Below the pieces are notes generated by a model. That model was not told the origin of the DNA and searched no databases. It saw only the letters and a program-made list of their open reading frames with translations. Shown one piece after another: positions 3,227-29,968 of a stretch of DNA of 32,493 nt. A program made the translations under genes and the position numbers. Origin of the DNA: Anaerolineae bacterium (GTDB lineage: Bacteria; Chloroflexota; Anaerolineae; UBA4142); NCBI GenBank assembly GCA_026417715.1, contig JAOACU010000003.1:1-32493 (forward strand), written 5' to 3'. The stretch's first letter is position 1. Each line of letters starts with the position of its first letter.

Positions 3227-4894
3227 ATGAAAGAATATCTCCGTACGGTACCCCTGTTCCACACCCTTGACGATGCGGCACTCGAACTGGTCGCCCAACG
3301 CATCGAATACAAACGCGTGAACAAAGGTGCCTCCGTCTTTCTGGCGGGCGAGCCCGGCGATTGTATGTACATCATCAAGAGCGGCATCGTCAAGGTGGTG
3401 TCGTACTACGAAGGCGAAGAACGCTTTATCCTCTACTTGGGTCCTGGCGATTTCTTTGGTGAAGGCGCCGCGCTGTTCGGTGGTCATCACTCGGCGAGTG
3501 TGTTCGTGGTGCTGGATGCGGAACTGTTGCTTCTCTCGCATGATGATGTGACCGCGCTGATGCAACAATTCCCTTCGATGAGTTTGACGATCATTCGTGC
3601 ACTCCACCAGCGTTTGCGCCTCTCCTTGCGCGCGCCTATTCAAACCAAGCAAATCAACATTATCGCTTCCATCGGACTGTCCACGCCATTATTGGCGCAA
3701 TACATTGGCGAAGTCACCGGCGAAGAGGTATTGTTACTCAATCTGGACACGGCGTTTCCTGCTCTGGACCGCGAGGCACTGGCGCGCGCGAATGTGCGCT
3801 GTCAATGTTTAGAACATCCGCTAGACGCCGATGATTTACCGCGCTATTTGAGTCAATTGGTACAACAATACTATTGGGTGATTCTGTGGCTCGAAGCGGA
3901 AGAGCGCCCGCTCTATCGCAAAGCCATCGAATTGGCAGACCTGTGCGTGGTGTTGGGTGTTGTTGAACGCCAAGCGGCAGCGCACTTGATGCCAGAGCCC
4001 TTGTACGCTGATGCCGAGTCTGCAGCCATCTACAAACTGGCGCGCAGGATCGCTCAGCGTCAAGTGGGTTTGGCACTATCAAGTGGCAACGCGCGGGGGA
4101 TGGCGCACATTGGCGTACTCAAAGTATTGCGCGAAGAAAATATTCCGATTGATTTCATCGTCGGCACAAGTGCCGGCGCGCTCTTTGGCGCAATGTACGC
4201 CGCAGGACGTAGCATCGAAGAAATGACCCAGTTCGCGCTTCAGGTGCGTTTGGAGTACAACTTTTTGACGGGCTTTCGCAACTGGGATTTCAGTATCCCA
4301 CCGCGTTGGGGACTCATCAAAGGGAATATGTTTCTCAAGCAACTGCAACGCTTGTTCCCCGACGAAACGTTTGAAGGTTTACAAATACCGTTTGCCGCTG
4401 TTGCCACCGACCTTATCTCTGGTGAAGAGATTATCTTTGAACGCGGTCCCCTCGCCGAAGCCCTGCGCGCGACGATGAGCGTCGGTGGCTTTTTGGAACC
4501 CGCGCGACACGAGGGGCGTTTGCTGATTGATGGTGGCGCGGTCAACCCAGTGCCCGTCCAAGTCTTGACCGCGCGCGGAATGAATATCACGATTGCTTCC
4601 AACGTCATTCCCACCTTGCACGAGCGCGTGCGTTGGAAACGTGGGCAACTCGAAAAAGATCGCGCGACGCTGATTGATATTATGCTGAACGAACGTGAAA
4701 TTATGGAGGGCGAAATCATCCGCTCGCGAATGGCGCCCGTGGATGTCTTGATTCAACCTGACGTGGCACGCTATCACGTGCGGCAGTATGACAAGGCGGC
4801 TGAAATCATTCGCGCAGGTGAAGAAGCCGCGCGTCTGCACATTCCGCAGATTCGCAAACTCCTCGCGCCGCGTCCGCGCAAACCACTCACTTGA
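3227..4894 (+). CDS. Cyclic-nucleotide-binding domain / patatin-like phospholipase fusion protein, paralog 2
   Basis: It is collinear with the upstream gene, with long identical stretches (LARRIAQRxVGLALSSGNARGMAHIGVL, GTSAGA, IEEMTQFAL, ATDLISGEEIIFERG, LIDGGxVNPVP, APVDVLIQP, YDKAAEII). In the cNMP cassette the Arg is replaced, reading FFGEGAALFGGHHSAS. Confidence 0.85.
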   Translation: MKEYLRTVPLFHTLDDAALELVAQRIEYKRVNKGASVFLAGEPGDCMYIIKSGIVKVVSYYEGEERFILYLGPGDFFGEGAALFGGHHSASVFVVLDAELLLLSHDDVTALMQQFPSMSLTIIRALHQRLRLSLRAPIQTKQINIIASIGLSTPLLAQYIGEVTGEEVLLLNLDTAFPALDREALARANVRCQCLEHPLDADDLPRYLSQLVQQYYWVILWLEAEERPLYRKAIELADLCVVLGVVERQAAAHLMPEPLYADAESAAIYKLARRIAQRQVGLALSSGNARGMAHIGVLKVLREENIPIDFIVGTSAGALFGAMYAAGRSIEEMTQFALQVRLEYNFLTGFRNWDFSIPPRWGLIKGNMFLKQLQRLFPDETFEGLQIPFAAVATDLISGEEIIFERGPLAEALRATMSVGGFLEPARHEGRLLIDGGAVNPVPVQVLTARGMNITIASNVIPTLHERVRWKRGQLEKDRATLIDIMLNEREIMEGEIIRSRMAPVDVLIQPDVARYHVRQYDKAAEIIRAGEEAARLHIPQIRKLLAPRPRKPLT

Positions 4895-4905
4895 GTCCAA
4901 CTCCT

Positions 4906-6147
4906 ATGCCTCGCACCACTAGCCGTTCCGATATAGAAGCCAGTACCGAACTGCACAAACGCATCGCTCACCTTGAGCAACGTATCGCCGAACTCGAAGC
5001 CCTGCAAGAGGTCGCGCTAGTCTTTTCATCGGAACTGCGTCTCGATCGTTTGCTCGCGCTCATTCTGTCTAGCGCGGTAGATGTGATGAAAGCGAATGCT
5101 GGATCACTGCTCTTGCACGACGAGGCGACGAATGAACTGGTCTTTCAAGTAGTGCAAGGTGGCGGTGGCAAGGCGTTGCGCCAAAAACGCATTCGCAGTG
5201 ACGAAGGGATTGCGGGCTGGGTCTTTTCTAAACGTCATCCTGTCATCGTGCATGATACCTCGGCAGACCCACGCCACCTCACGCGGATTGACGAATCGCT
5301 TCGCTTTCACACCGCCGCGATGGTCGCCGCGCCACTGCTTTACAAGAACAAACCGATTGGCGTCATCGAAGTCATCAACAAAAAATCGGGTGAACAATTC
5401 ACCGAGCGCGATCAAGATTTGTTGATGGCGTTTGCCGCTCAAGCCGCTGTCGTCATCGAAAACGCGCGCTTGTATCAACAAGTGGTCACCGAACGCGATC
5501 GGCTTCTCATCGTCGAAGAGCAAGTGCGCCGCGAACTGGCGCGCGAATTGCACGATGGACCGGCGCAACTCCTCTCCGCGATGACGATGGGCTTGCGTTT
5601 CCTGCGCCAAGTGATTACGCGCCAGCCCGACCGCATCGAAACAGAAATCAGCGAACTGGAACGTTTGGCAACCCAAGCCCTGCGCCAAGTGCGTAACCTC
5701 TTGTTCGATTTGCGTCCCGTTGCACTTGAAACTCAGGGCTTGCGCGCCGCACTCGAAATCTACGTCGAACGCCTGCGCGAGAGCGACAACGTCCAACTCC
5801 ACCTCGATGTTCGTGACCTCAAGACCCGCTGGACACCCAAAGTGGAAGCCGCGCTCTTTTCGATCATTCAAGAAGCCGTTGGGAATGCCAAAAAACACGC
5901 GCAACCCAAAAACATTTGGATCACGGCGCAACGGCAAGGCGAAAAGATGATCTTGCGTGTGCGCGACGATGGACGCGGGTTTGATCTGGCGCAGGTCGAA
6001 AACTCGTACGCGCAACAAGGCAGTTTGGGCTTGTTGAATATGAAAGAGCGCGCCGAAATCGCCCACGCTAAACTTGAAATTGCTTCTCAGCCGGGCAAAG
6101 GAACAACGGTAACGTTGAGCGTGCCGATGCAGCCAACACGCGCGTGA
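4906..6147 (+). CDS. GAF-domain sensor histidine kinase (HisKA_3/NarL-class)
   Basis: An N-terminal coiled coil is followed by a GAF-like block (..AGSLLLHDEATNELVFQVV..EGIAGWV..PLLYKNKPIGVIEVINK..). The H-box ELHDGPAQ is of HisKA_3 type. The HATPase_c motifs are EAVGNAKKHA, RDDGRGF and GLLNMKERA...GKGTTV. An alternative TTG start at 4891 overlaps the upstream stop (TTGA). Confidence 0.9.
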   Translation: MPRTTSRSDIEASTELHKRIAHLEQRIAELEALQEVALVFSSELRLDRLLALILSSAVDVMKANAGSLLLHDEATNELVFQVVQGGGGKALRQKRIRSDEGIAGWVFSKRHPVIVHDTSADPRHLTRIDESLRFHTAAMVAAPLLYKNKPIGVIEVINKKSGEQFTERDQDLLMAFAAQAAVVIENARLYQQVVTERDRLLIVEEQVRRELARELHDGPAQLLSAMTMGLRFLRQVITRQPDRIETEISELERLATQALRQVRNLLFDLRPVALETQGLRAALEIYVERLRESDNVQLHLDVRDLKTRWTPKVEAALFSIIQEAVGNAKKHAQPKNIWITAQRQGEKMILRVRDDGRGFDLAQVENSYAQQGSLGLLNMKERAEIAHAKLEIASQPGKGTTVTLSVPMQPTRA

Positions 6148-10772: not shown

Positions 10773-10787
10773 CATTGTTGAAAATTG

Positions 10788-10886
<99 letters not shown>

Positions 10887-10897
10887 TTAAAATCCTT

Positions 10898-18099: not shown

Positions 18100-20253
18100 A
18101 TGTACAAAAGATTTTTGCTCGCGTGCAGTCTTGCTTTTGCGTTTGTGCTACTCGCCAATCTAGTTGCGCGCGGAGAAACCAACACGCGCACACTCACCTT
18201 TGCCGATTTGGGTTACCCGAAAGACGAAACGCTACACGGTGTTCGCGCAACGCGCGAATACGGTGTGCTGTTGCCGCAATCTTGGAATGTGCAAACAGCC
18301 ACCATCCTCGTACTGCGATTCAGTCACTCGCCAGCGTTACGTCCCAACTCTAGTCTGGCGGTGGATTGGAACGGCACACGCTTGACGAGCACACTGCTTA
18401 CAGCGGAGAATGCCAAAGACGGCGTCTTGCGTGCCGAAATTCCTGCCGCGTTGATGCGCACAGGTTACAACGTCTTGCGTCTTGAAGCGTATATGGGGAT
18501 TCAGGACGATTTTTGTTCCGATATTGACAATCCTGCGGTTTGGTTGACCGTGCATCATTCATCCTTCTTGCAAGTAAATTTCCTGACCAAGTCACCCGAA
18601 GCCGATTTGGGTACATTTCCCCTACCATTCATCGAACCCAGTTCACTCGTCACCAATACCGTAACGTTGGTGTTGCCCGATTCGCCGCGTCTCGCCGAAT
18701 TGACAGCGGCGGCAACGATCGGTGCCAAGTTGGGACAGTTGGCAGCGTGGCGACCGCTCCAATTCGATGTGCGCGCGGCATCTACTTTCGATTTGAATCA
18801 GAACAACGGTCACATCATCGTGATTGGCGCGCGCGAACGCTTGCCACGTACTCTCGACTTGCCCATCGTAAAAAAGTTAGGCACTGAAACACAATTGACC
18901 GATTGGCGCGGCGAGCCATTACCGCGCCACGCGGGCGTACTCTGGGAACAACTCACACCGCGTCGCGAGGCATTACTCCTCGTCGTCACCGGCGAAGACG
19001 ATACGGCGATGCTTACTGCCGCGCGCGCGCTTGCCAGCACACCAACGTACGCACAATTGAACGGGCCACTCGGCGTGGTGCTCCAAGTGCCACCGCCCAA
19101 AGGGAACGGTTCGATTGGACAAACGTTGACGCTGGAAGAGTTGGGGTATCGCGACATTACAGCGCAAGGTTCGCGCGAACAGACATTGAATTACGTGATT
19201 CCCTTGCCGATGGCATGGCAAATTCAAGAAGGCGCGACCTTGGATTTACACTTTGCGCATTCAGCCCTATTGGACACCAACAAGTCATCGTTGAACGTGC
19301 TGTTGAACGGAACACCTGTGGGGAGCATTCTACTCACAAGCAAAACCGCCAGCGATGGACGCGTCACGTTCACACTCCCCGCGCGCTTGTTCAAGATGGG
19401 CGAAAACACGTTGACGATTGTGAGCAACATCCAAGTCCCGCGTCCGACCAAAGACCCGACCGATTGTTTGAACACGTACTATCGCGAGGCGTGGCTGGTG
19501 GTCTATGCCGATTCGCGCTTGCGAATGCCCGGTGCACCCGCCAACTTGTCAGCGACGCTTGGCAACTATCCGCGCGCGTTCATCGGCGCGATGGACTTGT
19601 CTGATCTCACTTTCGTCGTCCCGCCCGAACCTAATCTCGCGGTTGCGCGCGCCGTAGCGTGGATCAGCGCACGACTCGGACGCTTTGCACAAGGCGAAAC
19701 CCTTGCCCCGCTGGTGGCGGACGCGCAAACACCAACTTTGACGCGCTATCAAATTATCGTGGGACGTCCTTCGCAAAACCCAGCGATTGCCAAACTGAAA
19801 GATGTGCTACCACAACCGTTCAAATCAAACAGTGACGAACCTGAACCCGTCGCGCAGGTGGCGCAAGTGTTACCACCGCGCGGCACCATCGGCTATGTGC
19901 AAGCCACCACGATAGACAAACAACCGCGCCTTGTGGTCACTGGCAACAACGACGAGGGACTGTTATGGGCAGCCGAGGCGTTGAGCGCGCCAGAACTCTT
20001 GGGCAAGTTGCGTGGCGATCTGGCGATTCTGAGTGCCGCCGCTTCGCTCACCACGCTCGAAGTGCGTACCAAAGACAATCCCACCGCGTTGGCTTTGGCA
20101 CAGCCAACCCCAACCACCAACGGCACATCAAGTATGCCGACATGGGTAATGGGTTTGACCATCGGATTGTTTCTCGTGACAGCAGTGATCCTGTTCTTGG
20201 TCGGTTGGCAATCGTGGATTGGTATGCGGATGCAAAGGCGAAGGAATAACTGA
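18100..20253 (+). CDS. BcsB-like (cellulose synthase regulatory subunit-like) periplasmic protein with C-terminal TM anchor
   Basis: It has an N-terminal signal peptide. Two repeats follow the BcsB pattern: TLTFADLGY..ETLHG....YGVLLP..W.....ILVLRFSHSPALRPNSSLAVDWNGTRL.S..L and TLTLEELGYRDITAQG...TLNYVIPLP..W....ATLDLHFAHSALLDTNKSSLNVLLNGTPVGSILL. The block FCSDIDNPAVWLTVHHSSFL is also present. A single C-terminal TM helix is WVMGLTIGLFLVTAVILFLVGW. Confidence 0.7.
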   Translation: MYKRFLLACSLAFAFVLLANLVARGETNTRTLTFADLGYPKDETLHGVRATREYGVLLPQSWNVQTATILVLRFSHSPALRPNSSLAVDWNGTRLTSTLLTAENAKDGVLRAEIPAALMRTGYNVLRLEAYMGIQDDFCSDIDNPAVWLTVHHSSFLQVNFLTKSPEADLGTFPLPFIEPSSLVTNTVTLVLPDSPRLAELTAAATIGAKLGQLAAWRPLQFDVRAASTFDLNQNNGHIIVIGARERLPRTLDLPIVKKLGTETQLTDWRGEPLPRHAGVLWEQLTPRREALLLVVTGEDDTAMLTAARALASTPTYAQLNGPLGVVLQVPPPKGNGSIGQTLTLEELGYRDITAQGSREQTLNYVIPLPMAWQIQEGATLDLHFAHSALLDTNKSSLNVLLNGTPVGSILLTSKTASDGRVTFTLPARLFKMGENTLTIVSNIQVPRPTKDPTDCLNTYYREAWLVVYADSRLRMPGAPANLSATLGNYPRAFIGAMDLSDLTFVVPPEPNLAVARAVAWISARLGRFAQGETLAPLVADAQTPTLTRYQIIVGRPSQNPAIAKLKDVLPQPFKSNSDEPEPVAQVAQVLPPRGTIGYVQATTIDKQPRLVVTGNNDEGLLWAAEALSAPELLGKLRGDLAILSAAASLTTLEVRTKDNPTALALAQPTPTTNGTSSMPTWVMGLTIGLFLVTAVILFLVGWQSWIGMRMQRRRNN

Positions 20254-20265
20254 CGTTACGCACAC

Positions 20266-20293
20266 GTAGGACAGGTTTGCCAACTTGTCCTAC
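20266..20293 (+). other. Intergenic hairpin (possible attenuator or weak terminator)
   Basis: The sequence gtaggacaggtt-tgcc-aacttgtcctac forms a 12-bp stem with one G-U pair. It is followed by atttcac, which is a weak U tract. Confidence 0.3.
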
Positions 20294-20338
20294 ATTTCAC
20301 ACCAGATTTTCTATCCTCTGCGTAAGGTGAGGGAATAT

Positions 20339-21526
20339 ATGAATGTCAAACAAGACCTTCAATTCAAATTGCTCGTGGCAACGTTGGGGGTCTGGCTTAT
20401 TCTGGGTTCACTAGTAATCGGCTGGGTGGACTCGACGTTTTATATGCTAGCGTTCGGTCTGCTCGCGCTAACGACCACGCTGACATTGATCTACTCATCG
20501 CGCTTACTCGATGTGGGAATCGTAATCGCAGGCACGCTCATTTTCGGTGTGGTGCAAGTGCTGGTGTACGGCTTCACTCCGCGTATCGTGTTTCCTGCCA
20601 TCGTTTGCCTTGTGGCGTTGAGTGGTGCAGCCGCATTAGGCACACTCGCCAATCGTCAATTTACACGCGTGAGCCAGCAATTGGAACAACAACATCGGTT
20701 GGTGGACGAGTTGCGTGTCTATGATCCCGATACCAACTTGTTGCGTTATCCGTACGCCTTGCAAACGCTCAAAAATGAGATTGCGCGCAGTCAACGGTAC
20801 AATCGTCCGCTGTGCGTGCTGTTTTTGCGCGTGAACGAACCGCCCGAGTGGATGCAACCTCAAGGTGAATTGGCAAAACGCGCGGCGTATCAACAAATCG
20901 CTGAACTTGTGCGTGGATCGCTACGCACCGTAGATGTGGCATTCTTCAACGCGACCAAGTTCGGTGCCATTCTGCCAGAGACCGATGCGGTAGGTAGTCG
21001 TCTTGTCGCTGAGCGACTCATCGAACGCATCGCGAACAAGATGCGCTTGGCTACCTATATCGGCATAGCCCATTTCCCCAGCGATGGAGTAACGGAAGAA
21101 GAACTGGTGCGCGGCGCCGAGGCTGCATTACAGTTGGCGTTGACGACAGGGCAACCTTTGGTTTTTTACGTGCAACTACGCCATGCCGTTCGTCCTGCCG
21201 CGCCCATCCAACCGTTAGATTTACCGCCAACATCTCAACCCTCGCCCCTCAACCACACCGGAATCGAATTGCACATTGCGGGATTGCGCGATCTGGCAAA
21301 TACCTTGCGCATCGAACAAGCCTTGCGCGATTACGTCGGCGCCGAGAATGTACGCACATTACGTTTTATGGATGGCACGCTCGTGCTCGAACTCAAACAC
21401 CCTCCCAGCGATTTGACGCAAAAACTTGCCGAACTCATTCCCTTGCCCATCGAACAACTCGCGCGTGAGGGTCGAACGATTCACGCGCGCGTGCAGGAGG
21501 CTAGCGTTGGAACCGCCGCGCACTAA
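20339..21526 (+). CDS. Membrane protein with degenerate (catalytically inactive) GGDEF domain retaining an RxxD I-site; PelD-like candidate c-di-GMP receptor
   Basis: About 5 N-terminal TM helices precede a GGDEF-fold pattern: DPDTNLLRY..(for D.LTgL.NR), LCVLFLRVN (for lallllDlD), LRTVDVAFFNATKFGAILPETD (for R..D.vaRyGGDEFaill..t), YIGIAHFP and AEAALQLALTTGQP. The GG(D/E)EF motif is replaced by NATKF (nt 20948-20962), while RTVD (20924-20935) is retained. The Shine-Dalgarno sequence AAGGTGAGGG lies upstream of ATG 20339. Confidence 0.7.
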   Translation: MNVKQDLQFKLLVATLGVWLILGSLVIGWVDSTFYMLAFGLLALTTTLTLIYSSRLLDVGIVIAGTLIFGVVQVLVYGFTPRIVFPAIVCLVALSGAAALGTLANRQFTRVSQQLEQQHRLVDELRVYDPDTNLLRYPYALQTLKNEIARSQRYNRPLCVLFLRVNEPPEWMQPQGELAKRAAYQQIAELVRGSLRTVDVAFFNATKFGAILPETDAVGSRLVAERLIERIANKMRLATYIGIAHFPSDGVTEEELVRGAEAALQLALTTGQPLVFYVQLRHAVRPAAPIQPLDLPPTSQPSPLNHTGIELHIAGLRDLANTLRIEQALRDYVGAENVRTLRFMDGTLVLELKHPPSDLTQKLAELIPLPIEQLAREGRTIHARVQEASVGTAAH

Positions 21527-21767
21527 CTGGTGGCTTGCACTGGTGATCGTCCTGCGCGTGATGATCTTTCTGGGTGTTTGGCTCGTTCTGTTTATGGGAA
21601 TATTTTTGGGCTATTTCACCGTGCCGTTAATTGTCCTTGCCGCGCTGACTTTGTTTTACGCCATCACCGATGCTGGCTTGGTGATTGCTCTCGTGCGTCA
21701 GCGTGCCCGTCAAGCGCGTCACACTTTTTTGCAAGCGCGCGATTCGGAATCTACCCAGAACACGTAA
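21507..21767 (+). CDS. Small hypothetical membrane protein (about 86 aa, 2-3 TM)
   Basis: AGGAGG at 21495-21500 lies 6 nt upstream of TTG 21507. The hydrophobic sequence WWLALVIVLRVMIFLGVWLVLFMGIFLGYFTVPLIVLAALTLFYAITDAGLVIALV is followed by a basic tail. It overlaps the upstream gene by 20 nt. I see no recognisable family. Confidence 0.35.
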   Translation: MEPPRTNWWLALVIVLRVMIFLGVWLVLFMGIFLGYFTVPLIVLAALTLFYAITDAGLVIALVRQRARQARHTFLQARDSESTQNT

Positions 21768-21817
21768 CTGATGTAAGTTTGCAAACTGGTACTACACAAC
21801 GGTATTAGACATCGCCT

Positions 21818-21883
21818 CAACGAATGGGCAACGAATAAACGAATGAGTACCGTGCAGATTCGTTTGTGTGTTCAATATTCGTT
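21818..21883. repeat. ACGAAT/ATTCGT word hairpin element (family B, copy 4)
   Basis: The sequence is CAACGAATgggcaacgaataaacgaatgagtaccgtgcagattcgtttgtgtgttcaatATTCGTT. It lies immediately upstream of the GT2 synthase gene. The ORF-track GTG start at 21866 falls inside it. Confidence 0.75.
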
Positions 21884-21946
21884 AAAGCGGATTTTCAAAA
21901 GCAAACCTCAACCTCTGTAGAAACTTTCTCTCCCAAAGCGTTCGTG

Positions 21947-24900
21947 ATGATGTACGACCATCCTGCGCCGTTCGTACGATTGAACGGCTTTGTGCCCACC
22001 TCTGCTGCACTCCGCGTACTTGCCGAATCGGTGGCGCGTCAATTCCTGATAGTGCCCCTGTGGCTGGAGCATACAACGCTTGTGGTGGCTTCGGCGCACG
22101 GTTTGGACAACGCCACGCTTCACACGCTTACCACAATCGTACGGCGTCCCCTGCGTGTGCTGCGCGCCACATATCCCGATGTGCGCGCCGCACTCGAGCG
22201 TTTTTATCGCGGCACAAGTCCGCGTCCATCCACGCCTTCACTTGAGCAAGCCCTGCTCCATCTTGGCTATCTCAACGCAGAGACTGTGGAGCAAGCACGC
22301 GCAGCATCGGCGAACCTTTCGCTTGCCCAAACCTGTCTGCAATCAGACTTGCTCACCGAAGACGAATTGATCGAAGCGCAAGGGTGGCAGTTCAACTTGC
22401 CACCTTTGCGTCTGCGCGGTTTGAGCACCCAGACATGTCTTGCGCCACTCATTCCTCTGGACATTGCACGCACGCAAAAAATTGTTCCGCTATGGTGGAT
22501 TCAAAACACCTTGATTGCTGGCATCACTGCGCCGAACGATGTGTCCGCACGCGTGGAACAATTTCCTTTTCCCTTGTGGCTCGCTGTATGTTCACCTACC
22601 GAGTGGAATCATCTTTACGAACGCACTTATCTCACTGGTTCCACGCGAGTCGGAGATGACGAGTCAGCAGTCGTCGAAGTGCTGTTACGCTACGGCTTGC
22701 TCGACTCCACGACGCTACATCTTGCGCGCGCGATCGCGCAGCAAACTCGGCGTCCTTTGCGCGAGGTGCTCATCTCGCGCGGTGTTTTGACCGCCCAACA
22801 ATGGCTAGAAGCGCGCGCCCATCATTGGGGCATACGCGCGGGTTACACCCCCACGCGTCGCAATGGCGATTCTGCACAACTCGCCGATCTTGTACCCGCT
22901 GCGCTGGCGCGCCAATGTGCCATCGTTCCACTTGAATACGATGCCAAGCGCGCGACACTTGTCGTTGGAATGCCGCACCCCAACGACGATGTATCCCGCC
23001 TCCTCGAAAACCTGACGCATCTACACATCGAGGCGCGCCTGCTCGATGAAGACACTGTGCACGCCGAGATGCAAAATCTGTATGGTGATGACACACCCCA
23101 GTTACCGTTGGCACCTTCTCTTGGCGATCTGTTGACAGGGCTAGGCATCGTCACACCGACCCAATGGCAACAAGCCGAAGCATCTCCCAAGCGTTTGATT
23201 GAATTGGGTTATCTCGACGAGTTCGACCTCACCACGATTCGCGCGTTGCAAACGGGCTTGCCCGCCACGCGTCTCACGCGCGCGCGTTTCGATGCTAATC
23301 TTGTGACGCGTGTTTCACCCGAACTCGCACAACGTCACCATTGCCTTCCTTGGATCATTCAAGATGGCACCGTTTGGGCAGTCATTGCCGATCCGTTCGA
23401 CACCGTCGGGTTGCAAATGCTCGAAGCCGCACTGGGTTCACCCGTGTATCCGATTCTTGCTCCGCGCCCGGCGATTGACGCGGTGATCGAACGCTTTTTT
23501 GGTGTGTCCACTCTGCGTTTGGATGACGCGACCCATTCCTTCATCGAGGCGATGATTCAGCGCGGTGTGCTCACGCATACCAGCGCGGCACGCGCGCGGC
23601 AACTCGTCGAACAAGGTGTGGCACTCGACCAAGCCATCTTGCAAGTCAGCACTCGATCAGCGCGCGATCTCACACGCACGTTCGCCGAGCATCTTGGCAT
23701 TGCTTGGGTGGATTTGCAATTGCGCGAAGAAACCACGCGCGTTTTCGATGCACTTGGACAATCCATCACGCGACGCCAAGCACACGACCCGGTGGACGCA
23801 ACCGTAGCGCGGCTGATAGATTTGGAAACGGCACGTCGCTTGAGCGCGCTGCCGATTGCGCGCACCGATGGCGCGCTCTTGGTCGCCTTTGCCAACCCGT
23901 TGTTCGACTCGGCGCGTCGTGAAATTGAATCTCTGCTCAAGACGCCCGTGCGTCCTGTCCTCGCGGCGCGTTCCGATTTGGACGAAGCCATTCAACGCGT
24001 GTTGGGTCATCAAAACATCGGCACGCGTCTCTTGCTGGCGGGTCTCATTTCGCGCGTGCAACTCAACGATGCTCTGGAATTGGCGCAACGGACTGGAGTG
24101 CGCTTGGGACGCGCGTTGATCACGCGAGGATACATTACACCAGAACAACTGGCGCAATTCCTTGCCGAGCAAGCCCATCTGCCGTTTTTCGATTTGCGTT
24201 CGGTCAAACTCGATGTCACTATGGCTCGTTGGATTGACGAAGCCACCGAGCGCGCGCTAGGCATTTTGCCGCTGGCACTCCACCAAGACGAATTGACGCT
24301 CGCGATGGTGGATCCGTTGAACGAAGAAGCCGTGCGTGTTGCCGCGCGCGTCACGGGCTATACGATTCGCCCCGTGTTGGTAAGCGAACAGGACTTGGAA
24401 GACGCGCTCGAACGCATCTACGGGAGCGAGTACTTGGGGCGCAGTGTGTCGGAACTGCTCGAACGCGCGCCAGAAGATTCGGCGTACTGGGTGTTGAGTC
24501 GCGGGCAAAAGATTGCCTTCGCGCTCATCGCGCTCGTCTCCGCGTTGTGGCTCATCACCGATTGGCGTGGGTACATCATTCTCCTCAACGCGTTTGCCAC
24601 CACATTCTACTTGGGTTTCTCGGCGTACAAATTTTATCTGGCGTATCGCGCCATCACGCATGAACTCGAAGTGCCTGTCTCGGATGAAGAAGTCGCCGCG
24701 CTCGATGCGCGCGACTTGCCTGTGTACACGATTCTCGTACCCGTGTACAAAGAAGCCGATGTGTTGCCCGATTTGTTGGAAGCGATCAGTAAACTCGACT
24801 ATCCACCAACGAAACTCGATGTCAAAGTGTTGATGGAAGCCGACGATACCGAGACGATTCAGGCGTTCGAGCGGATGAAGATGCCCGCACAGTTTCAGGG

Positions 24901-25870
24901 GATTGTGGTGCCAGTAGCACCGCCGCGCACCAAACCCAAGGCGTGCAACTATGGGCTGATTCACGCGCGCGGCGAATACGTTGTCATCTACGATGCCGAA
25001 GACTTGCCCGATCCCGATCAACTCAAGCGCGTTCTAGTCGCGTTCCGCAAATCGCCACCGAACGTGGTGTGCATCCAATCGAAACTGAATTACTACAATC
25101 GCAACCAAAACTTGTTGACCGCGTGGTTCACCGTCGAGTATTCGATGTGGTTCGACTTGTTCTTGCCGGGTTTGGATGCCAGCGGCGCACCGATTCCGCT
25201 CGGTGGCACCTCGAATCACTTTAAGCGCAGCGCGCTCATCGAAGCCGGCGCGTGGGACCCCTACAACGTGACCGAAGACGCGGACTTGGGAGTACGCATC
25301 TTCAAGCGTGGCTATCGCACTGCCATCGTAGATAGCACGACGTACGAAGAAGCCAACAGTGAAATTTACAACTGGATTCGTCAGCGTTCGCGTTGGATCA
25401 AGGGATACATTCAAACCTGGTTGGTGCATATGCGCCATCCACTTAAACTGTATCGTGAATTGGGATTCACGGCGTTCTGGAGTTTTCAGTTCGTCGTAGG
25501 CGGCACGTTCTTCGCCGCGCTCTTGAATCCGATTTACTGGTTCTTGACGACGTTGTGGTTTCTCACGCATTGGGAACTGATCCAAATCGTCTTTCCTGGC
25601 ATTGTGTTTTATTCGGGCGCATTGTGTTTGTACTTGGGTAACTTTGCCTTCACGTACTTGAACGTGGCGGGCGCAATGCGACGCGGCTATTACGATATGG
25701 TGAAATATGCGTTACTCAGTCCCTTGTATTGGGGCTTGATGAGCGTGGGCGCGTGGAAGGGCTTGTGGCAACTGGTGACCAAACCGTACTTTTGGGAAAA
25801 GACCAAGCACGGTTTGTTCCAGGGCGAACCCAGCACCGAGCGCGCTAACAAGTTGCGAGATTTGGTGTGA
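21947..25870 (+). CDS. Multi-(T2SSE_N/MshEN-like) domain protein fused to a membrane-embedded processive family-2 glycosyltransferase (cellulose/chitin/PNAG-synthase-like)
   Basis: About six N-terminal repeats have the GspE-N pattern (..a..l.vlPl....g.l.va..dP.d.......l.......v.pvla....l..al.r.yg). The last repeat is preceded by a perfect MshEN-type 24-aa motif, RLGRALITRGYITPEQLAQFLAEQ (nt 24101-24172). After the TM helices come the GT2 motifs VPVYKE, YDAED (DxD, nt 24992-25003), TED and QRSRW (nt 25382-25396), then C-terminal TM helices. No PilZ domain is visible. The start is uncertain (GTG 21944, ATG 21947 or ATG 21950). Confidence 0.85.
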   Translation: MMYDHPAPFVRLNGFVPTSAALRVLAESVARQFLIVPLWLEHTTLVVASAHGLDNATLHTLTTIVRRPLRVLRATYPDVRAALERFYRGTSPRPSTPSLEQALLHLGYLNAETVEQARAASANLSLAQTCLQSDLLTEDELIEAQGWQFNLPPLRLRGLSTQTCLAPLIPLDIARTQKIVPLWWIQNTLIAGITAPNDVSARVEQFPFPLWLAVCSPTEWNHLYERTYLTGSTRVGDDESAVVEVLLRYGLLDSTTLHLARAIAQQTRRPLREVLISRGVLTAQQWLEARAHHWGIRAGYTPTRRNGDSAQLADLVPAALARQCAIVPLEYDAKRATLVVGMPHPNDDVSRLLENLTHLHIEARLLDEDTVHAEMQNLYGDDTPQLPLAPSLGDLLTGLGIVTPTQWQQAEASPKRLIELGYLDEFDLTTIRALQTGLPATRLTRARFDANLVTRVSPELAQRHHCLPWIIQDGTVWAVIADPFDTVGLQMLEAALGSPVYPILAPRPAIDAVIERFFGVSTLRLDDATHSFIEAMIQRGVLTHTSAARARQLVEQGVALDQAILQVSTRSARDLTRTFAEHLGIAWVDLQLREETTRVFDALGQSITRRQAHDPVDATVARLIDLETARRLSALPIARTDGALLVAFANPLFDSARREIESLLKTPVRPVLAARSDLDEAIQRVLGHQNIGTRLLLAGLISRVQLNDALELAQRTGVRLGRALITRGYITPEQLAQFLAEQAHLPFFDLRSVKLDVTMARWIDEATERALGILPLALHQDELTLAMVDPLNEEAVRVAARVTGYTIRPVLVSEQDLEDALERIYGSEYLGRSVSELLERAPEDSAYWVLSRGQKIAFALIALVSALWLITDWRGYIILLNAFATTFYLGFSAYKFYLAYRAITHELEVPVSDEEVAALDARDLPVYTILVPVYKEADVLPDLLEAISKLDYPPTKLDVKVLMEADDTETIQAFERMKMPAQFQGIVVPVAPPRTKPKACNYGLIHARGEYVVIYDAEDLPDPDQLKRVLVAFRKSPPNVVCIQSKLNYYNRNQNLLTAWFTVEYSMWFDLFLPGLDASGAPIPLGGTSNHFKRSALIEAGAWDPYNVTEDADLGVRIFKRGYRTAIVDSTTYEEANSEIYNWIRQRSRWIKGYIQTWLVHMRHPLKLYRELGFTAFWSFQFVVGGTFFAALLNPIYWFLTTLWFLTHWELIQIVFPGIVFYSGALCLYLGNFAFTYLNVAGAMRRGYYDMVKYALLSPLYWGLMSVGAWKGLWQLVTKPYFWEKTKHGLFQGEPSTERANKLRDLV

Positions 25871-27510
25871 GACGCACAACGCTGAACGAAGGTCCTCCGC
25901 CAGCGCCGATTGCCAAGCCAACACTAGGACGCTACGAGGGATGGATCATTTTCGCGCTGGCGTGCACGTTGAACTTGATAACAGCGTGGTGGTTGGCGTA
26001 CGTGTGGTCTGTAGGCAACAGTGATGCCTTGTCACGCACGGCAAACGCGTTCTATGTCCTCTTCTCGCGCGATCCACACCTCGCAGCAATCGGCTTTGTG
26101 TGGCCCCCCCTACCCAGTTTGATGCAACTGCCGATTTTGCTCTTCACACGTTGGCTTGGTCAGCCCCAGTTTAGCGGTCCGATTCTATCCAGCGTGTCTG
26201 GTGCCGTCGCGCTAGTCATTCTCAATCTAATCCTTGCTCAACTGAATGTATCTCGCGCGTTGCGTTGGGGCTTGCTGGTGCTCACCCAACTCCATCCAAG
26301 TTTCTGGTACCTTGCCGCTAGCGGTCTGGCTGAAATCATCTTGCTATGTTGTCTGCTCTTGACCATCTGGGGATACTTGCTGATGCCTGAACGCGTACGT
26401 TCGTGGGCGATTGCAGGATTGGGCTTGGCATTAGGATTCTTTGTACGCTATGAAGCCCTAGCAATGATCGCGGGTATCGTGTTAGCGATTGCGATACAAC
26501 GCTGGCCCCCCTGGCGCAATTGGGAAACCGCGCTGGAAGGACGTTTGTTGTTCGTGCTATCACCGCCGGCTTATGCTATCGGACTATGGTTGTATTTTAA
26601 CTGGATGTTTACGAGCGATCCGCTCTTCTTCCAGCGCAGTGCGTATAGTCTGGCAGTGGCCCCTGATGTGGCGCGCAACGTGGGCTTGGCACATCCCTTG
26701 TTTGCCGCGATGGGCAATTGGATCAAGACGGGCGAATACGCGCTCACGCGCTTGGCACAACAAAACTTGGCATTTCTTGTCGCGATGCCGGTGATTCTTG
26801 GGCTTGCCCTTCGACGAAGCAAAATGCCATTGCTCGGTTTGTTGGTGTTGCTAGCGAGCGTGCCCTTGTTTACGGCTTATCAGGTGTATTCGGGTACGCT
26901 AGCCACGTGGATGCGGTACTGGTTTTACGCCACACCGTTTGCCGCGATACTCATCGGAGCGTGGCATGGCGCGAGCACAGGAACACGTCGTTGGGTGGTC
27001 ACGCTCGGACTTTTCGGCCTATTCGTTGCCAGCACACCTGTGACTTTGCTCGCGATGCGTGATCCGTACGCCAGTTTGGATGAGCAACGCTTGAGCGCGT
27101 ATCTGACGGATTCCGCGCAACAAATCAAATTGCGTGAACAAGATGGCTATTGGAAAGACATTCAGGACGCGCATAAACTAGCGCGTCGCGTGTATGAACG
27201 CGCGGGCGAACGTCGAGTGATGGTGGATACTGCGCGCGGCTATGCGATGATTATGCAGTATCCTCAACCAGAACGACTGGTCATCACTACGGATCGCGAC
27301 TTTGTGACAATCTTGGAAAATCCACCAGCGTTTGTAGATTATGTGCTGGTGCTCGCGCCCGAGACGAGTGGCGCCGGCTTTAATGTCATCGCTGCGCGTT
27401 ATCCTCACTTGTTCGAGAACGGGACACCTTGGGCAAAGTTAGAGGAAGATTTCACCGATACCTATCGTCACTGGCGTTTGTTTCGTGTAACGCGTCTATC
27501 TTCACAGTGA
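25867..27510 (+). CDS. Polytopic membrane protein, GT-C fold (ArnT/PMT_2-like) glycosyltransferase candidate, paralog 1
   Basis: The GTG start overlaps the synthase stop (GTGA). There are about 11-12 TM helices. The first loop, ..GNSDALSRTANAFYVLFSRDPHLAAIGFVWPPLPSLMQLP.., resembles the Asp-containing first periplasmic loop of the ArnT/PMT_2 family. A C-terminal soluble domain of about 130 aa follows. Confidence 0.55.
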   Translation: MRRTTLNEGPPPAPIAKPTLGRYEGWIIFALACTLNLITAWWLAYVWSVGNSDALSRTANAFYVLFSRDPHLAAIGFVWPPLPSLMQLPILLFTRWLGQPQFSGPILSSVSGAVALVILNLILAQLNVSRALRWGLLVLTQLHPSFWYLAASGLAEIILLCCLLLTIWGYLLMPERVRSWAIAGLGLALGFFVRYEALAMIAGIVLAIAIQRWPPWRNWETALEGRLLFVLSPPAYAIGLWLYFNWMFTSDPLFFQRSAYSLAVAPDVARNVGLAHPLFAAMGNWIKTGEYALTRLAQQNLAFLVAMPVILGLALRRSKMPLLGLLVLLASVPLFTAYQVYSGTLATWMRYWFYATPFAAILIGAWHGASTGTRRWVVTLGLFGLFVASTPVTLLAMRDPYASLDEQRLSAYLTDSAQQIKLREQDGYWKDIQDAHKLARRVYERAGERRVMVDTARGYAMIMQYPQPERLVITTDRDFVTILENPPAFVDYVLVLAPETSGAGFNVIAARYPHLFENGTPWAKLEEDFTDTYRHWRLFRVTRLSSQ

Positions 27511-27511
27511 T

Positions 27512-29098
27512 ATGCTGCCTAGAAAATTTTTCTCCGCATCACGTTTCATCTTCTTCTCCACTTTTATCCTCTACGCCGCGCTGGGCTGGATAGGCGCGTT
27601 TGTGTTGCAAACGTACAACTACGACGGGATTGCGCGCATCGCTCAAGCATTCAGCGTGTTCTCTAGTCGCGACCCGCATCTTGCCGCGATTGGCTTTGTA
27701 TGGATGCCGCTCCCAGTCCTCTCCGACTTGCCGCTGGTGTGGTTGCTCAAACCCTTCGGTTTGGTGCTGTGGGCGGGACCGCTAATGAGCGCGTTCTACA
27801 CCGCGCTCGCACTTGCCGCGCTGTACGATTTGTTGGGAGATTTTGAATTACCGCGCGTCTGGCGCGTGGTGTGGGTGCTGGGACTAGGTGCGCATCCACT
27901 CATTGTGCACAACGGCACAATGGGACTTTCCGAAGCACCGCTACTCGCGTGTTTGTTTCTGGCGTTGCGCGGCTTTATCGCCTGGGATCGCGAGAACAAG
28001 AGTTGGGGAATCCTGTGGGGAGGCATTTGGAGTGCGCTGGCAGTCTTTTGTCGCTATGAAGCGATGGCGTGGGTGGGCGTGACGACGCTCGCGCTGGTTT
28101 GGCGCTGGTGGCTCGATCCGTCGCGACATCAAGCGCGCGCGCTCCAAGCCAACATTCTGGCATACACGATGCCACCACTCTACGCGCTCGGTGGTTGGGT
28201 GTTGGTCAACTGGTTGATTATGAAAAATCCGATTTACTTTCTCGTTGGACCCGGTTCCACTGCCACAACGCCCGACACCGCTCAAGCCGTAGGACCAAGC
28301 CATCCGTTTGCGTACGCGCAAAATTCCGTGAGCGGTTCGGCTCTGTTGTTGTCGCGACAAATCGCTGACCTATCTCCTTTGCTGGCGTTGGCGACGTTAC
28401 TGCTGATCGTTCTCGTACTGTGGAAAAAAGCGTGGGGCGACCTGAGTTACCTTGCACTCGGTTGGTCTATTCTGGGTTTCACATTTTTTACTGCGTGGCG
28501 CGGCTTGTTGCCACCGTTCACCCGTTATTTCTTCTGGATTGTGCCTGCCGGCGTCATCATTGCCGCGACGGCGTATCGTTGCGCGCACAAGCGCTGGACG
28601 CGCGCCCTGACCCTTGCGCTAATGACCGTCGCGCTCTGGGCGCCGTTCACGTGGCTGATTCCACGCGCACTCGAACGTTTGCCCGATCCATATCCGTTAC
28701 GCATCGTTGGCGCGTTCTTGTTACCCCCCGAAGTGACTGACCATCGTCAGGTGCGCGGACAATTGGACGAATTCAAGATGATTGCGGCGTATCTCAATGC
28801 GCAACATCCGCCGCGCACGACACTCCTTGATGCGGCAATCGGTTCACCCTTGCTGTTTTTCCTCACCCGACCTGAAACGCTGGTGTTAACGACTGATCGC
28901 GATTTCAAACAAATTCTATCCTCACCGATTGGGCGAGTGGATCAGATACTCGTGCCTTACCCCAGTTTCGACGCGCGAGGACGTTCGGAAATTCTCAAAC
29001 TCTATCCCGCCATTTACGACGGGCAGGCGTGGACGCAGTTGGTGCACGAGTTTCCTGGACCCAACGCCTGGCGTCTGTACCGCATCGTATCACCCTAA
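27512..29098 (+). CDS. Polytopic membrane protein, GT-C fold (ArnT/PMT_2-like) glycosyltransferase candidate, paralog 2
   Basis: It starts 1 nt after the upstream stop. It shares ..YDGIARIAQAFSVFSSRDPHLAAIGFVWMPLPVLSDLP.., ..FCRYEAMAW.. and the C-terminal ..LVLTTDRDF..IL..P....D.ILV.. blocks with paralog 1. Confidence 0.55.
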   Translation: MLPRKFFSASRFIFFSTFILYAALGWIGAFVLQTYNYDGIARIAQAFSVFSSRDPHLAAIGFVWMPLPVLSDLPLVWLLKPFGLVLWAGPLMSAFYTALALAALYDLLGDFELPRVWRVVWVLGLGAHPLIVHNGTMGLSEAPLLACLFLALRGFIAWDRENKSWGILWGGIWSALAVFCRYEAMAWVGVTTLALVWRWWLDPSRHQARALQANILAYTMPPLYALGGWVLVNWLIMKNPIYFLVGPGSTATTPDTAQAVGPSHPFAYAQNSVSGSALLLSRQIADLSPLLALATLLLIVLVLWKKAWGDLSYLALGWSILGFTFFTAWRGLLPPFTRYFFWIVPAGVIIAATAYRCAHKRWTRALTLALMTVALWAPFTWLIPRALERLPDPYPLRIVGAFLLPPEVTDHRQVRGQLDEFKMIAAYLNAQHPPRTTLLDAAIGSPLLFFLTRPETLVLTTDRDFKQILSSPIGRVDQILVPYPSFDARGRSEILKLYPAIYDGQAWTQLVHEFPGPNAWRLYRIVSP

Positions 29099-29103
29099 AA
29101 TTT

Positions 29104-29133
29104 AACAGCGGACGAGGTACCTCGTCCGCTGTT
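29104..29133. terminator. Bidirectional intrinsic terminator candidate
   Basis: A perfect 30-nt palindrome, aacagcggacgaggt/acctcgtccgctgtt, would give a ~13-bp stem. It is flanked by aaaattt on the left and gagttttatcttgtt on the right. It sits between convergent gene blocks. Confidence 0.75.
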
Positions 29134-29151
29134 GAGTTTTATCTTGTTCAG

Positions 29152-29206: not shown

Positions 29207-29968
29207 TTAGAACCTGAGCCGCATCAGGTCTTTACCCACAATGACGGTGCCGGTGAACGTACTCTGCGCGGCGGTACGCCACGCGCGCACATCGCATTCA
29301 GGGGGCAAATGAACCAACACCAACTTTTTCACATCGGCGCGCGTGGCTTGTTCGCCGGCTTGGCGCGCGCTGGTATGTCCATTACTATCGGTATCGAGTG
29401 TTGTTGCTTCGTGAACCAGAATGTACGAACCGCGCGCCAGATTCACCACATCGTCCAATACTTCGGTATCGCTCGAATACGTGATCGCGCGGCGCGAAGC
29501 ACGCGCTTCGATGCGTACTGCAATTGTCGGGATGATGTGACGCGTGGGAGCGGAAGAGACCGAAAATTCGGCAGTGACCAAATGCGCATTGTGGTATCGT
29601 TGGGGAACACGGTGGAATTCAATCGGAAAAAAGTTTTTAAATCGTTCCCACTCGAACGCACGCATCAACGCGCGCGTGGCGCGCAGTGTGTCGGCTAGTC
29701 CATAGATGGACAGTGGCTTTTTTCTGCCTGCCAACCACATACCCAATAGAAGAACCGAGAGCCCGTAGATGTGATCGGGATGATGATGGGTGAGGATGAT
29801 GTGATCAATTTGATCGAGCGCGACGCCGGCTTTGAGCAAACGTTGTACGGGACTGCCCGCGCAATCAATTAGAATGGCTTCGCGCTCGCCCTTGACGACC
29901 AAATAGGTATGCTCGCGCGTGGCGTCGCTGAGTGCAGCACCTGTGCCTAGCAAAATGAGTTGAGCCAT
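29207..29968 (-). CDS. MBL-fold metallo-hydrolase (RNase Z/BN-like)
   Basis: The N-terminus is LILLGTGAA. The metal-binding motif is ILTHHHPDHIYG (HxHxDH). Later blocks include ..LVHEAT.. and ..GHTSARQAG... Confidence 0.75.
   Translation of the reverse strand: MAQLILLGTGAALSDATREHTYLVVKGEREAILIDCAGSPVQRLLKAGVALDQIDHIILTHHHPDHIYGLSVLLLGMWLAGRKKPLSIYGLADTLRATRALMRAFEWERFKNFFPIEFHRVPQRYHNAHLVTAEFSVSSAPTRHIIPTIAVRIEARASRRAITYSSDTEVLDDVVNLARGSYILVHEATTLDTDSNGHTSARQAGEQATRADVKKLVLVHLPPECDVRAWRTAAQSTFTGTVIVGKDLMRLRF

Follow-up and report, generated by a model that had tools for sequence, protein, structure and literature searches.

A glycosyltransferase with six tandem MshEN modules and one predicted cyclic di-GMP site in Anaerolineae

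How many of the sensor-like domains stacked in front of a single bacterial glycosyltransferase would respond to cyclic di-GMP (c-di-GMP), and what might the others do? This question is raised by a 32,493-nucleotide (nt) stretch of contig JAOACU010000003.1 from an Anaerolineae bacterium (assembly GCA_026417715.1), the whole of which is called the window here. Its gene at 21947-25870 (features are on the forward, +, strand unless stated otherwise) encodes a predicted synthase in which six tandem MshEN modules are followed by two transmembrane (TM) helices, a family 2 glycosyltransferase (GT2) domain and further TM helices, an architecture written here as (MshEN)6-TM2-GT2-TM. We computed domain identities, motif status, conservation, selection and operon structure for this protein and its relatives. 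The reading that we favor, with a probability of roughly 0.6, is that the sixth, membrane-proximal module is a c-di-GMP switch and that modules 1-5 are non-binding docking or scaffold domains.

The open reading frame (ORF) as called mechanically spans 21866-25870 and encodes 1334 amino acids (aa); residue numbers below follow this ORF. Seven full-length relatives of 1306-1323 aa start at the equivalent of M28/M29 (MMYD...), so the real start is likely M28 or M29 (nt 21947 or 21950), which gives a protein of ~1306 aa. On the whole protein, Pfam detected MshEN (PF05157; E 9.4e-70, 5 stretches), with Glyco_trans_2_3, Glyco_tranf_2_3 and Glycos_transf_2 downstream. A first-pass annotation had assigned 21968-24430 to repeats of the T2SSE_N/MshEN type. 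This span was accurate, as it runs from codon 35, the first residue of alpha/beta unit 1, to codon 855, the last residue of unit 6, and each of the peptides cited was found in the ORF.

For a module-by-module Pfam scan, the array was cut into six pieces, and scores were compared with the curated cutoff (GA) of MshEN, 23.1 bits. The Pfam model spans the alpha/beta (MshEN_C) half of the domain only. Module 1 (21968-22216), an alpha/beta MshEN_C-type unit alone, scored 46.9 bits at aa 35-117. Module 2 (22238-22636) has a degenerate four-helix unit (aa 125-175) and an alpha/beta unit (aa 176-257); the latter reached 19.3 bits at aa 176-257 (E 1.2e-3), under the cutoff. A degenerate four-helix unit (aa 268-320) also opens module 3 (22667-23092), whose alpha/beta unit (aa 321-409) scored 26.7 bits at aa 336-409. 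Scores of 61.8 bits at aa 463-545 and 60.4 bits at aa 639-715 were obtained for module 4 (23117-23503; truncated helical unit, aa 418-462; alpha/beta unit, aa 463-546) and module 5 (23537-24010; the most degenerate helical unit, aa 558-610; alpha/beta unit, aa 611-715), respectively. Module 6 consists of an MshEN_N half with a predicted 53-residue c-di-GMP site (24014-24172) and an alpha/beta MshEN_C half (24173-24430, aa 770-855), and scored 67.1 bits at aa 772-855. All six alpha/beta units, five of them above the curated cutoff, matched the Pfam model nearly end to end, and the modules matched one another by BLASTP (E 1.8e-13 to 1e-3). Among Protein Data Bank (PDB) sequences, the best match of the array was Thermus PilF, which has three such domains (E 2.4e-23). 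By phmmer, module 6 aligned with residues 9-145 of 5HTL, MshE with bound c-di-GMP (E 1.9e-14); its MshEN_N half corresponds to residues 9-61 and its MshEN_C half to residues 62-145.

An AlphaFold2 model of aa 29-870, based on a 9-sequence alignment, had a mean predicted local distance difference test score (pLDDT) of 83.4 and a predicted template-modeling score (pTM) of 0.56. In this model, modules 2-6 each show four helices and then helices (H) and strands (E) in the order H-H-E-E-H-E-H; module 1 shows the H-H-E-E-H-E-H unit alone, with no four-helix unit before it. The first-pass annotation had described about six repeats of a short helical unit plus an alpha/beta unit. Six alpha/beta units are indeed present, but there are only five four-helix units, and "short" does not describe them, since each is a pair of half-motifs that forms four helices. 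When the array model was compared with the PDB by Foldseek, all 21 matches with E <= 1e-3 were MshEN, PilF-GSPII, PilB-N or XpsE-N domains, and no other fold family appeared. The top match was 5HTL (E 7.5e-8, TM-target score 0.66, 33% identity); structural TM-scores were 0.75 for PilF GSPII-A and 0.73 for XpsE-N. The search also recovered the N1 domain of EpsE as bound to EpsL (2BH1) and PilB-N in complexes with PilZ (7LKM, 7LKO). The profile and structure comparisons that had been proposed as checks on the T2SSE_N/MshEN assignment thus both returned this domain type, the former through Pfam MshEN on all six alpha/beta units, the curated motif model NF053729 on module 6 (see below) and the 5HTL alignment. 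As a separate observation, the alpha/beta unit of module 5 (23696-24010) carries an extra beta-hairpin at aa ~620-640 (E592-599/E605-612 in model numbering); the unit is ~105 aa long compared with ~84 aa in the others, and the hairpin length is kept in most six-module relatives.

We then asked which modules retain a c-di-GMP site. In MshE, this site lies in the four-helix MshEN_N half and is built from two 24-residue motifs with a 5-residue spacer (PMC5013675). Motif II of module 6, RLGRALITRGYITPEQLAQFLAEQ (aa 746-769, nt 24101-24172), matches 10 of the 11 strict positions, with Y at an aliphatic site, exactly as the first-pass annotation had stated; when the array was shuffled 2000 times, the best motif score was never above 8/11. 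The spacer, QRTGV, has the canonical five residues. Motif I, NIGTRLLLAGLISRVQLNDALELA (aa 717-740), matches 8 of 11 strict positions, so that the full motif ascribed to the last module stands for its second half, but its first half is not fully canonical. Module 6 keeps the equivalents of MshE L10 (as I), G11, G18, L25, L29, R38, L39, G40, G47, L54, L58 and Q61, with two departures, N at R9 and A at Q32, where Q follows one position later. In MshE, changes at R9 and Q32 are reported to cost less than 5-fold in affinity, whereas substitutions of the hydrophobic residues and glycines cost more than 10-fold or abolish binding (PMC5013675). An N at motif position 1 is within the relaxed search motif of Wang et al. 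(PMC5013675), and PilF GSPII-B binds at 6 nM without arginines at motif position 1, where it has K and L (PMC11731258). NCBIfam NF053729 ("c-di-GMP_motif, MshE-related"), a curated 53-position model with a cutoff of 38 bits, accepted module 6 at 63.6 bits.

The same model gave 15.7, 23.4 and 17.9 bits for modules 2, 3 and 4, all under the cutoff (E 1e-2 to 4e-5), and no match on module 5 or on the N-terminus of module 1, which bears out the earlier statement that only the membrane-proximal module keeps the full motif. The residues equivalent to G11/G40 are E/A in module 2, V/R in module 3, G/P in module 4, I/Q in module 5 and G/G in module 6; in MshE, G11L and G40I abolish c-di-GMP binding (PMC5013675). 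In addition, the spacer of module 2 has 3 residues instead of 5. Module 4 keeps SLG in motif I, but an 8-residue deletion relative to the orthologues P0006 and P0007 removes the spacer and the RLG of motif II; at this position, P0006 has RLGELLIATGLITEAQFVEALEAG, five residues and RLGERLVNLGYLDDADLAAAFSLQ (aa 398-450; alignment A1 columns 401-450). Module 5 scores 4 and 1 of 11 strict positions, and its helices align best to XpsE (2D28), a documented non-binder. The automated motif-pair search misregistered modules 4 and 5 of the window protein, and their registers were set by hand using the turn glycine and alignment A1. Judged from these motifs, module 6 looks to be the sole module of the window protein with a functional-looking predicted c-di-GMP site.

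The array is followed by a long linker helix and two predicted TM helices (24431-24670, aa ~856-935), supported by a helix at 813-839 in the array model and by hydrophobic aa 880-898. The GT2 catalytic domain (24686-25465), recognized by the Pfam GT2 families, contains KPKACN (aa 1023), DAED (1043), TED (1136) and QRSRW (1173), all invariant in eight orthologues. Its closest solved structure is BcsA (4HG6/5EJ1, E ~3e-17), with which these signatures align. A C-terminal bundle of ~4 TM helices (25466-25870) includes hydrophobic segments at aa 1209-1256. Hydrophobic segments thus flank the GT domain on both sides, in a region whose structural model has a pLDDT of 52; helices 180-199 and 201-232 of this low-confidence second model fall in the TM region. 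Because two hydrophobic helices lie between them, the array and the GT domain are both predicted to be cytoplasmic. No PilZ domain was matched in the synthase by Pfam or NCBIfam. The protein is predicted to be a processive, BcsA-like GT2 exopolysaccharide synthase and, by analogy, its polymer is possibly a beta-glucan, given the BcsB-like partner described below. Cellulose synthase was considered and rejected: the protein lacks PilZ, the system scores far below the CelA and BcsB equivalog cutoffs (77.1 bits compared with 699.1 for CelA, TIGR03030), and the FFCGS motif is not conserved.

To place the protein in a family, an alignment of orthologues was searched against one genome per species (GTDB), and 79 loci were returned. 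Modules were counted using a hidden Markov model built from 48 alpha/beta units of eight orthologues, which is biased toward the query family and agrees with Pfam on the query. Six modules were detectable in the proteins of 36 of the 79 loci, and eight more loci encode five modules at full length (~1300 aa); in all, the layout occurs in ~45 species-level genomes, most of them from Anaerolineae. These five- and six-module proteins are 39-58% identical to the window protein and come nearly all from Anaerolineae or other Chloroflexota, including the cultured Pelolinea submarina MO-CFX1 and Flexilinea flocculi TC1; relatives with one to three modules occur in Solirubrobacterales, Thermoleophilia and Paraconexibacter. 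Against 1.84 billion representatives, HMMER returned 54 proteins with E <= 1e-30, mainly of ~1300 aa and aligned across the whole array. The six-fold array, called unusual in the first-pass annotation, is therefore not singular, as it belongs to a family conserved in Anaerolineae. Arrays of 3-4 MshEN on T2SSE ATPases appeared lower in the HMMER list. The list also held an NfrB-like protein of 893 aa (P0101), with an N-terminal GT2 domain and three C-terminal MshEN modules; multi-copy MshEN arrays thus occur on glycosyltransferases in both orientations.

Within the six-module proteins, modules 5 and 6 were orthologous by position to those of the window protein in 35/35 and 36/36 cases, and modules 2 and 4 in 28 cases each. 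As every module thus has its orthologue at the corresponding place in the window protein, the six-module array is ancient. Proteins with two modules mostly resemble the M5-M6 pair. We called a module competent-looking when both of its motifs had G at position 3 and no fewer than 8 of 9 core positions matched. By this definition, the last module was competent-looking in 70 of 80 family members, irrespective of how many modules (1 to 6) they have, and the penultimate module in none of 77. Among 37 six-module proteins, module 4 was competent-looking in seven and module 2 in two. P0006 and L001, two divergent orthologues, carry a canonical pair of RLG motifs in module 4, in the 24 + 5 + 24 layout, and have xLG in both halves of module 2. 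With module 4 intact in these proteins and an 8-residue deletion in the clade of the window protein, the decay is lineage-specific; judging from their motifs, the P0006 and L001 proteins may bind two or more c-di-GMP molecules.

Conservation and selection differed along the protein. Across eight orthologues, invariant columns made up 60% of the helical unit of module 6 and 65% of the GT domain, compared with 15-33% of the other helical units and 15-36% of the alpha/beta units. Relative to the closest orthologue, L080 (94% aa identity, dS ~0.3), the ratio of nonsynonymous to synonymous substitution rates (dN/dS, Nei-Gojobori) was 0.148 for modules 1-5, 0.081 for the whole of module 6, 0.031 for the helical unit of module 6 and 0.022 for the TM and GT regions. 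In more distant pairs, for which dS is near saturation, modules 1-5 gave 0.13-0.25. Modules 1-5 are under purifying selection, which is weaker than that on module 6 and the enzyme. These ratios, together with positional orthology in ~36 six-module proteins, indicate that modules 1-5 have been maintained.

The synthase lies in an operon in the order BcsB-like, degenerate GGDEF, small 2-TM protein, synthase and two GT-C-like proteins, and the genes overlap or abut in relatives. The first gene (18100-20253) encodes a BcsB-like subunit, periplasmic and with a TM anchor at its C-terminus (Pfam BcsB, 252 bits, E 1.3e-74); NCBIfam BcsB models also match this ORF, under their equivalog cutoffs. The second (20285-21526; likely start M19, nt 20339, by comparison with the close relative L081) encodes a 4-TM protein with a degenerate GGDEF domain (Pfam GGDEF, 27.2 bits), which has NATKF at the active site and RTVD (RxxD, aa 215-218) just upstream. 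Among 36 syntenic orthologues of this protein, none has GG[DE]EF and 34 keep RxxD. A degenerate GGDEF active site with a retained RxxD characterizes I-site receptors such as PelD. This pattern suggests that the protein is a second c-di-GMP receptor of the operon rather than a cyclase. A role as a local source of c-di-GMP, like that of DgcJ for NfrB, was rejected on the grounds of NATKF here and the absence of GG[DE]EF from all 36 orthologues.

The small 2-TM protein (21426-21767) has a basic C-terminus and is ~90-99 aa long in relatives; by tblastn, it was found just upstream of the synthase at 15 loci. It is a called gene in the relatives L081-L083, with which it was aligned and in which its stop abuts or overlaps the start of the synthase; in the window, ~180 non-coding nt (21768-21946) separate the two. 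Downstream, two paralogous multi-pass GT-C-like membrane proteins of ~540 aa are encoded at 25867-27510 and 27512-29098, and the first of these genes overlaps the synthase stop by 4 nt. The pair matched the NCBIfam LA_3751/LA_3752 putative glycosyltransferase model weakly (E 1.8e-6 and 5.4e-8, below cutoff) and no Pfam family, and the orthologue in L081 had a weak PMT_2 match. At least one GT-C-like gene lies 3' of the synthase in 71 of the 79 loci, including the Actinomycetota versions with 1-3 modules, which makes these proteins the most constant partner of the synthase. A terminator-like hairpin with a perfect 20-bp stem (29097-29140) begins at the stop codon of the final gene of the operon. 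The BcsB-like gene is linked in 40 of the 79 loci, and BcsB-like and GGDEF-like genes co-occur in ~40 loci. Among well-flanked loci, these partners accompany 20 of 21 synthases with at least five modules, compared with 3-4 of 17 with three or fewer (Fisher p ~1e-6). Rfam detected no c-di-GMP riboswitch or other regulatory RNA ahead of the operon, and a sigma-70 promoter scan found fewer sites than in shuffled sequence.

From these data, we infer that module 6 binds c-di-GMP, that the GT domain is activated and that modules 1-5 serve as a scaffold. In the mechanism that we propose, module 6, placed just before the first TM helix, would bind c-di-GMP and allosterically license polymerization, a task carried out in BcsA by the PilZ domain and in Escherichia coli NfrB by the C-terminal MshEN. 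For NfrB, experiments showed that GT2-dependent function needs c-di-GMP bound to the MshEN domain (PMC8669469). PilZ is lacking in Chloroflexi such as Anaerolinea and Chloroflexus, for which MshEN is the sole c-di-GMP protein receptor known so far (PMC5013675 Supplementary Table 5). Modules 1-5 would be pseudo-receptors, which have lost ligand-binding glycines and leucines and kept the fold, and would most likely serve as a c-di-GMP-independent docking or oligomerization scaffold through their alpha/beta (N1E-type) units. Labor would be clearly and testably divided between a single live sensor and these five pseudo-receptors. Docking is proposed because the same type of alpha/beta unit binds GspL in GspE/EpsE (2BH1) and PilZ in Xanthomonas PilB (7LKM). 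Candidate docking partners are the degenerate-GGDEF protein, the small 2-TM protein or neighboring synthase copies. A more speculative extension, which we regard as unlikely, is that, in filamentous Anaerolineae, modules 1-5 form a multivalent docking platform that gathers the synthase, the PelD-like receptor, the BcsB-like and GT-C-like proteins or further copies of the synthase into an ordered supramolecular array for secretion, with c-di-GMP read at module 6 and at the RxxD of the partner, and at a third site, module 4, in P0006 and L001. If true, this would be a new way to organize and gate a polysaccharide synthase, using pseudo-receptor domains.

Several points weigh against the proposed switch and scaffold. 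Motif I of module 6 has NIG in place of RLG, and its terminal position is A, with Q shifted by one. The GSPII-A domain of PilF, with one near-perfect motif and small structural deviations, fails to bind (PMC12002112). The AlphaFold model of module 6 with the TM and GT regions (aa 700-1334, 11-sequence alignment) has a pLDDT of 52.3, and below 50 in the GT domain, so that no sensor-GT interface can be read from it. Phylogeny confounds the association of array size with partner genes, as the comparison sets Chloroflexota against Actinomycetota. The scaffold role, although most likely, would follow from analogy and selection signatures only. Finally, the actual or main c-di-GMP receptor could be the degenerate GGDEF protein with its conserved RxxD. 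Taken to its end, this last point becomes an alternative in which no part of the array, not even module 6, depends on c-di-GMP, and any c-di-GMP control passes through the PelD-like protein encoded two genes upstream. The retention of RxxD in 34 and the degenerate active site in all 36 orthologues, the tight linkage of this gene to large-array synthases, the two deviating polar positions in motif I of module 6 and the GSPII-A precedent of a near-consensus domain that does not bind (PMC12002112) are consistent with it. However, no other part of the array is as conserved as the helical unit of module 6, which also passes the curated model, and relatives with 1-3 modules mostly lack a GGDEF-like gene yet have a competent-looking last module. 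Both inputs are also compatible rather than mutually exclusive, and we consider exclusive control by the GGDEF protein improbable.

The first-pass annotation had suggested either multivalent sensing or a scaffold role for the degenerate copies, and our results favor scaffolding or docking over sensing. That several modules of the window protein bind c-di-GMP with graded affinities, forming a multi-threshold or cooperative switch, appears quite improbable: glycines equivalent to G11/G40, whose replacement in MshE (G11L, G40I) abolishes binding, are altered in modules 2-5, module 4 has lost eight residues including the second RLG, and modules 2-5 all fall below the NF053729 cutoff, module 5 with no match. 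This has to be set against the precedent of PilF, in which two of the three domains each bind one c-di-GMP, with an ~80-fold difference in affinity (PMC11731258), the residual recognition of modules 2-4 by NF053729 (E 1e-2 to 4e-5), the near-canonical pair of RLG motifs with a 5-residue spacer in module 4 of P0006 and L001, where module 2 has xLG in both halves, and the seven of 37 six-module proteins with a competent-looking module 4. Modules 1-5 might instead be re-tuned to another ligand, a different cyclic dinucleotide or nucleotide, rather than serve in protein docking. MshEN is also reported to bind cGAMP (PMC5013675), and the helical units of modules 2-5 keep the four-helix fold under purifying selection. 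Such re-tuning seems very improbable, as these units show no alternative conserved motif (15-33% invariant columns, mainly core hydrophobics), module 1 has no helical unit, and the pocket glycines are replaced by bulky or charged residues. It is equally doubtful that modules 1-5 are nonfunctional remnants of old duplications that are tolerated as a spacer. They do show faster evolution (dN/dS 0.15, compared with 0.08 in module 6 and 0.02 in the GT domain), and one module has suffered a deletion, but dN/dS is well under 1 in every sub-unit, the modules are predicted with high fold confidence, and the six-module layout, lengths and positional orthology are kept at only 39-58% identity. We retain the reading of module 6 as a c-di-GMP switch preceded by non-binding docking or scaffold modules.

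Other genes of the window were noted in passing. The only Rfam match, a TPP riboswitch (10787-10897, +, 77 bits), precedes a cytosine/purine-type permease gene and a thiamine salvage and transport cluster that extends to 17868 (+; ThiM-like HK, ThiW, ECF ABC ATPase, CbiQ, ThiE and ThiD); in L081, the operon is likewise preceded by these thi genes. Near the start of the window, tandem paralogues at 1530-3203 and 3227-4894 (+) combine a cNMP-binding domain with a patatin-like phospholipase and are followed by a GAF-HisKA_3 histidine kinase gene (4891-6147, +). On the reverse strand after the operon, 29207-29968 (-) encodes an MBL-fold hydrolase with a sub-threshold match to anti-Pycsar Apyc1 (26.7 bits, cutoff 50). 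An orthologue occupies the same post-operon position in L082, and the gene is linked in only one of the 79 loci.

Anaerolineae are abundant filament-formers in anaerobic digesters and sediments, where matrix and sheath polymers are of practical relevance. Chloroflexi make and degrade c-di-GMP without PilZ (PMC5013675 Supplementary Table 5). The operon provides a concrete, conserved candidate for an output of this signal, a BcsA-like synthase for which we propose gating by MshEN. The array is also a natural series of pseudo-receptors, including lineages with an intact module 4, and could serve as a model for the decay of c-di-GMP sites and the retention of decayed domains. The (MshEN)6-GT2 architecture is certainly visible in domain databases. 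In the literature searched, with most subscription journals outside its coverage, we found no description of a multi-MshEN glycosyltransferase or of a Chloroflexi MshEN-BcsB operon. Wang et al. (2016) listed single MshEN-Glyco_trans_2_3 and Glyco_trans_2_3-MshEN (NfrB) proteins, and (MshEN)2-4 only on T2SSE ATPases (PMC5013675); the authors of the PilF study considered three consecutive domains to be so far confined to PilF homologues of Deinococcus-Thermus (PMC11731258). The six-module array is the largest MshEN array in this analysis, and the literature searched lists at most four copies, on ATPases only.

How does the synthase compare with characterized systems? We liken the GGDEF-like neighbor (20285-21526) to PelD by its signature: both are membrane proteins that have lost the GGDEF active site and kept RxxD, and no GAF domain was detected in the neighbor. 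Module 6 resembles Vibrio cholerae MshE (5HTL) over residues 9-145 at 33% identity, with the same 24 + 5 + 24 layout; it differs in R9 to N and in Q32 to A, with Q shifted by one, and serves a different output domain. Thermus thermophilus PilF (PDB 6F8L, 8PDK, 9G1W) has three modules, compared with six here, and its output is a T2SSE ATPase; two of its modules bind, compared with probably one here as predicted from the motifs (PMC11731258, PMC12002112). An MshEN domain N-terminal to Glyco_trans_2_3, as in the window protein, was described from bioinformatics alone for Rsph17029_0522 of Rhodobacter sphaeroides, but with a single MshEN and in an architecture listed for Actinobacteria, Firmicutes and Proteobacteria, not Chloroflexi (PMC5013675 Supplementary Table 4).

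On the enzyme side, BcsA-BcsB (PDB 4HG6, 4P00, 5EJ1) provides the closest solved GT domain, with HAKAGN-like, DxD, TED and QxxRW motifs aligned, and here too the operon contains a gene for a BcsB-family partner that has its TM anchor at the C-terminus. Unlike BcsA, the window protein has no C-terminal PilZ, its c-di-GMP input would come from an N-terminal MshEN module, and PLGGTS stands in place of FFCGS. E. coli NfrB is likewise a processive GT2 with DxD, TED and QxxRW, joined through two TM helices to a cytoplasmic MshEN (PMC8669469, PMC8669472), and both c-di-GMP binding by this MshEN and GT activity are needed for NfrB function. The order, however, is GT-TM2-MshEN in NfrB and MshEN-TM2-GT here, with one MshEN there and six here, and the partners are NfrA and YbcH there and BcsB-like, degenerate GGDEF and GT-C-like proteins here. 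As the NCBIfam NfrB model (NF008411) scored 108.5 bits against an equivalog cutoff of 1170, in a match spanning the MshEN part only, the synthase is not an NfrB orthologue. The window protein is thus made of known parts, an MshEN sensor, a GT2 synthase and a BcsB partner, in an uncharacterized and unusually large arrangement that is mechanistically close to NfrB and PilF.

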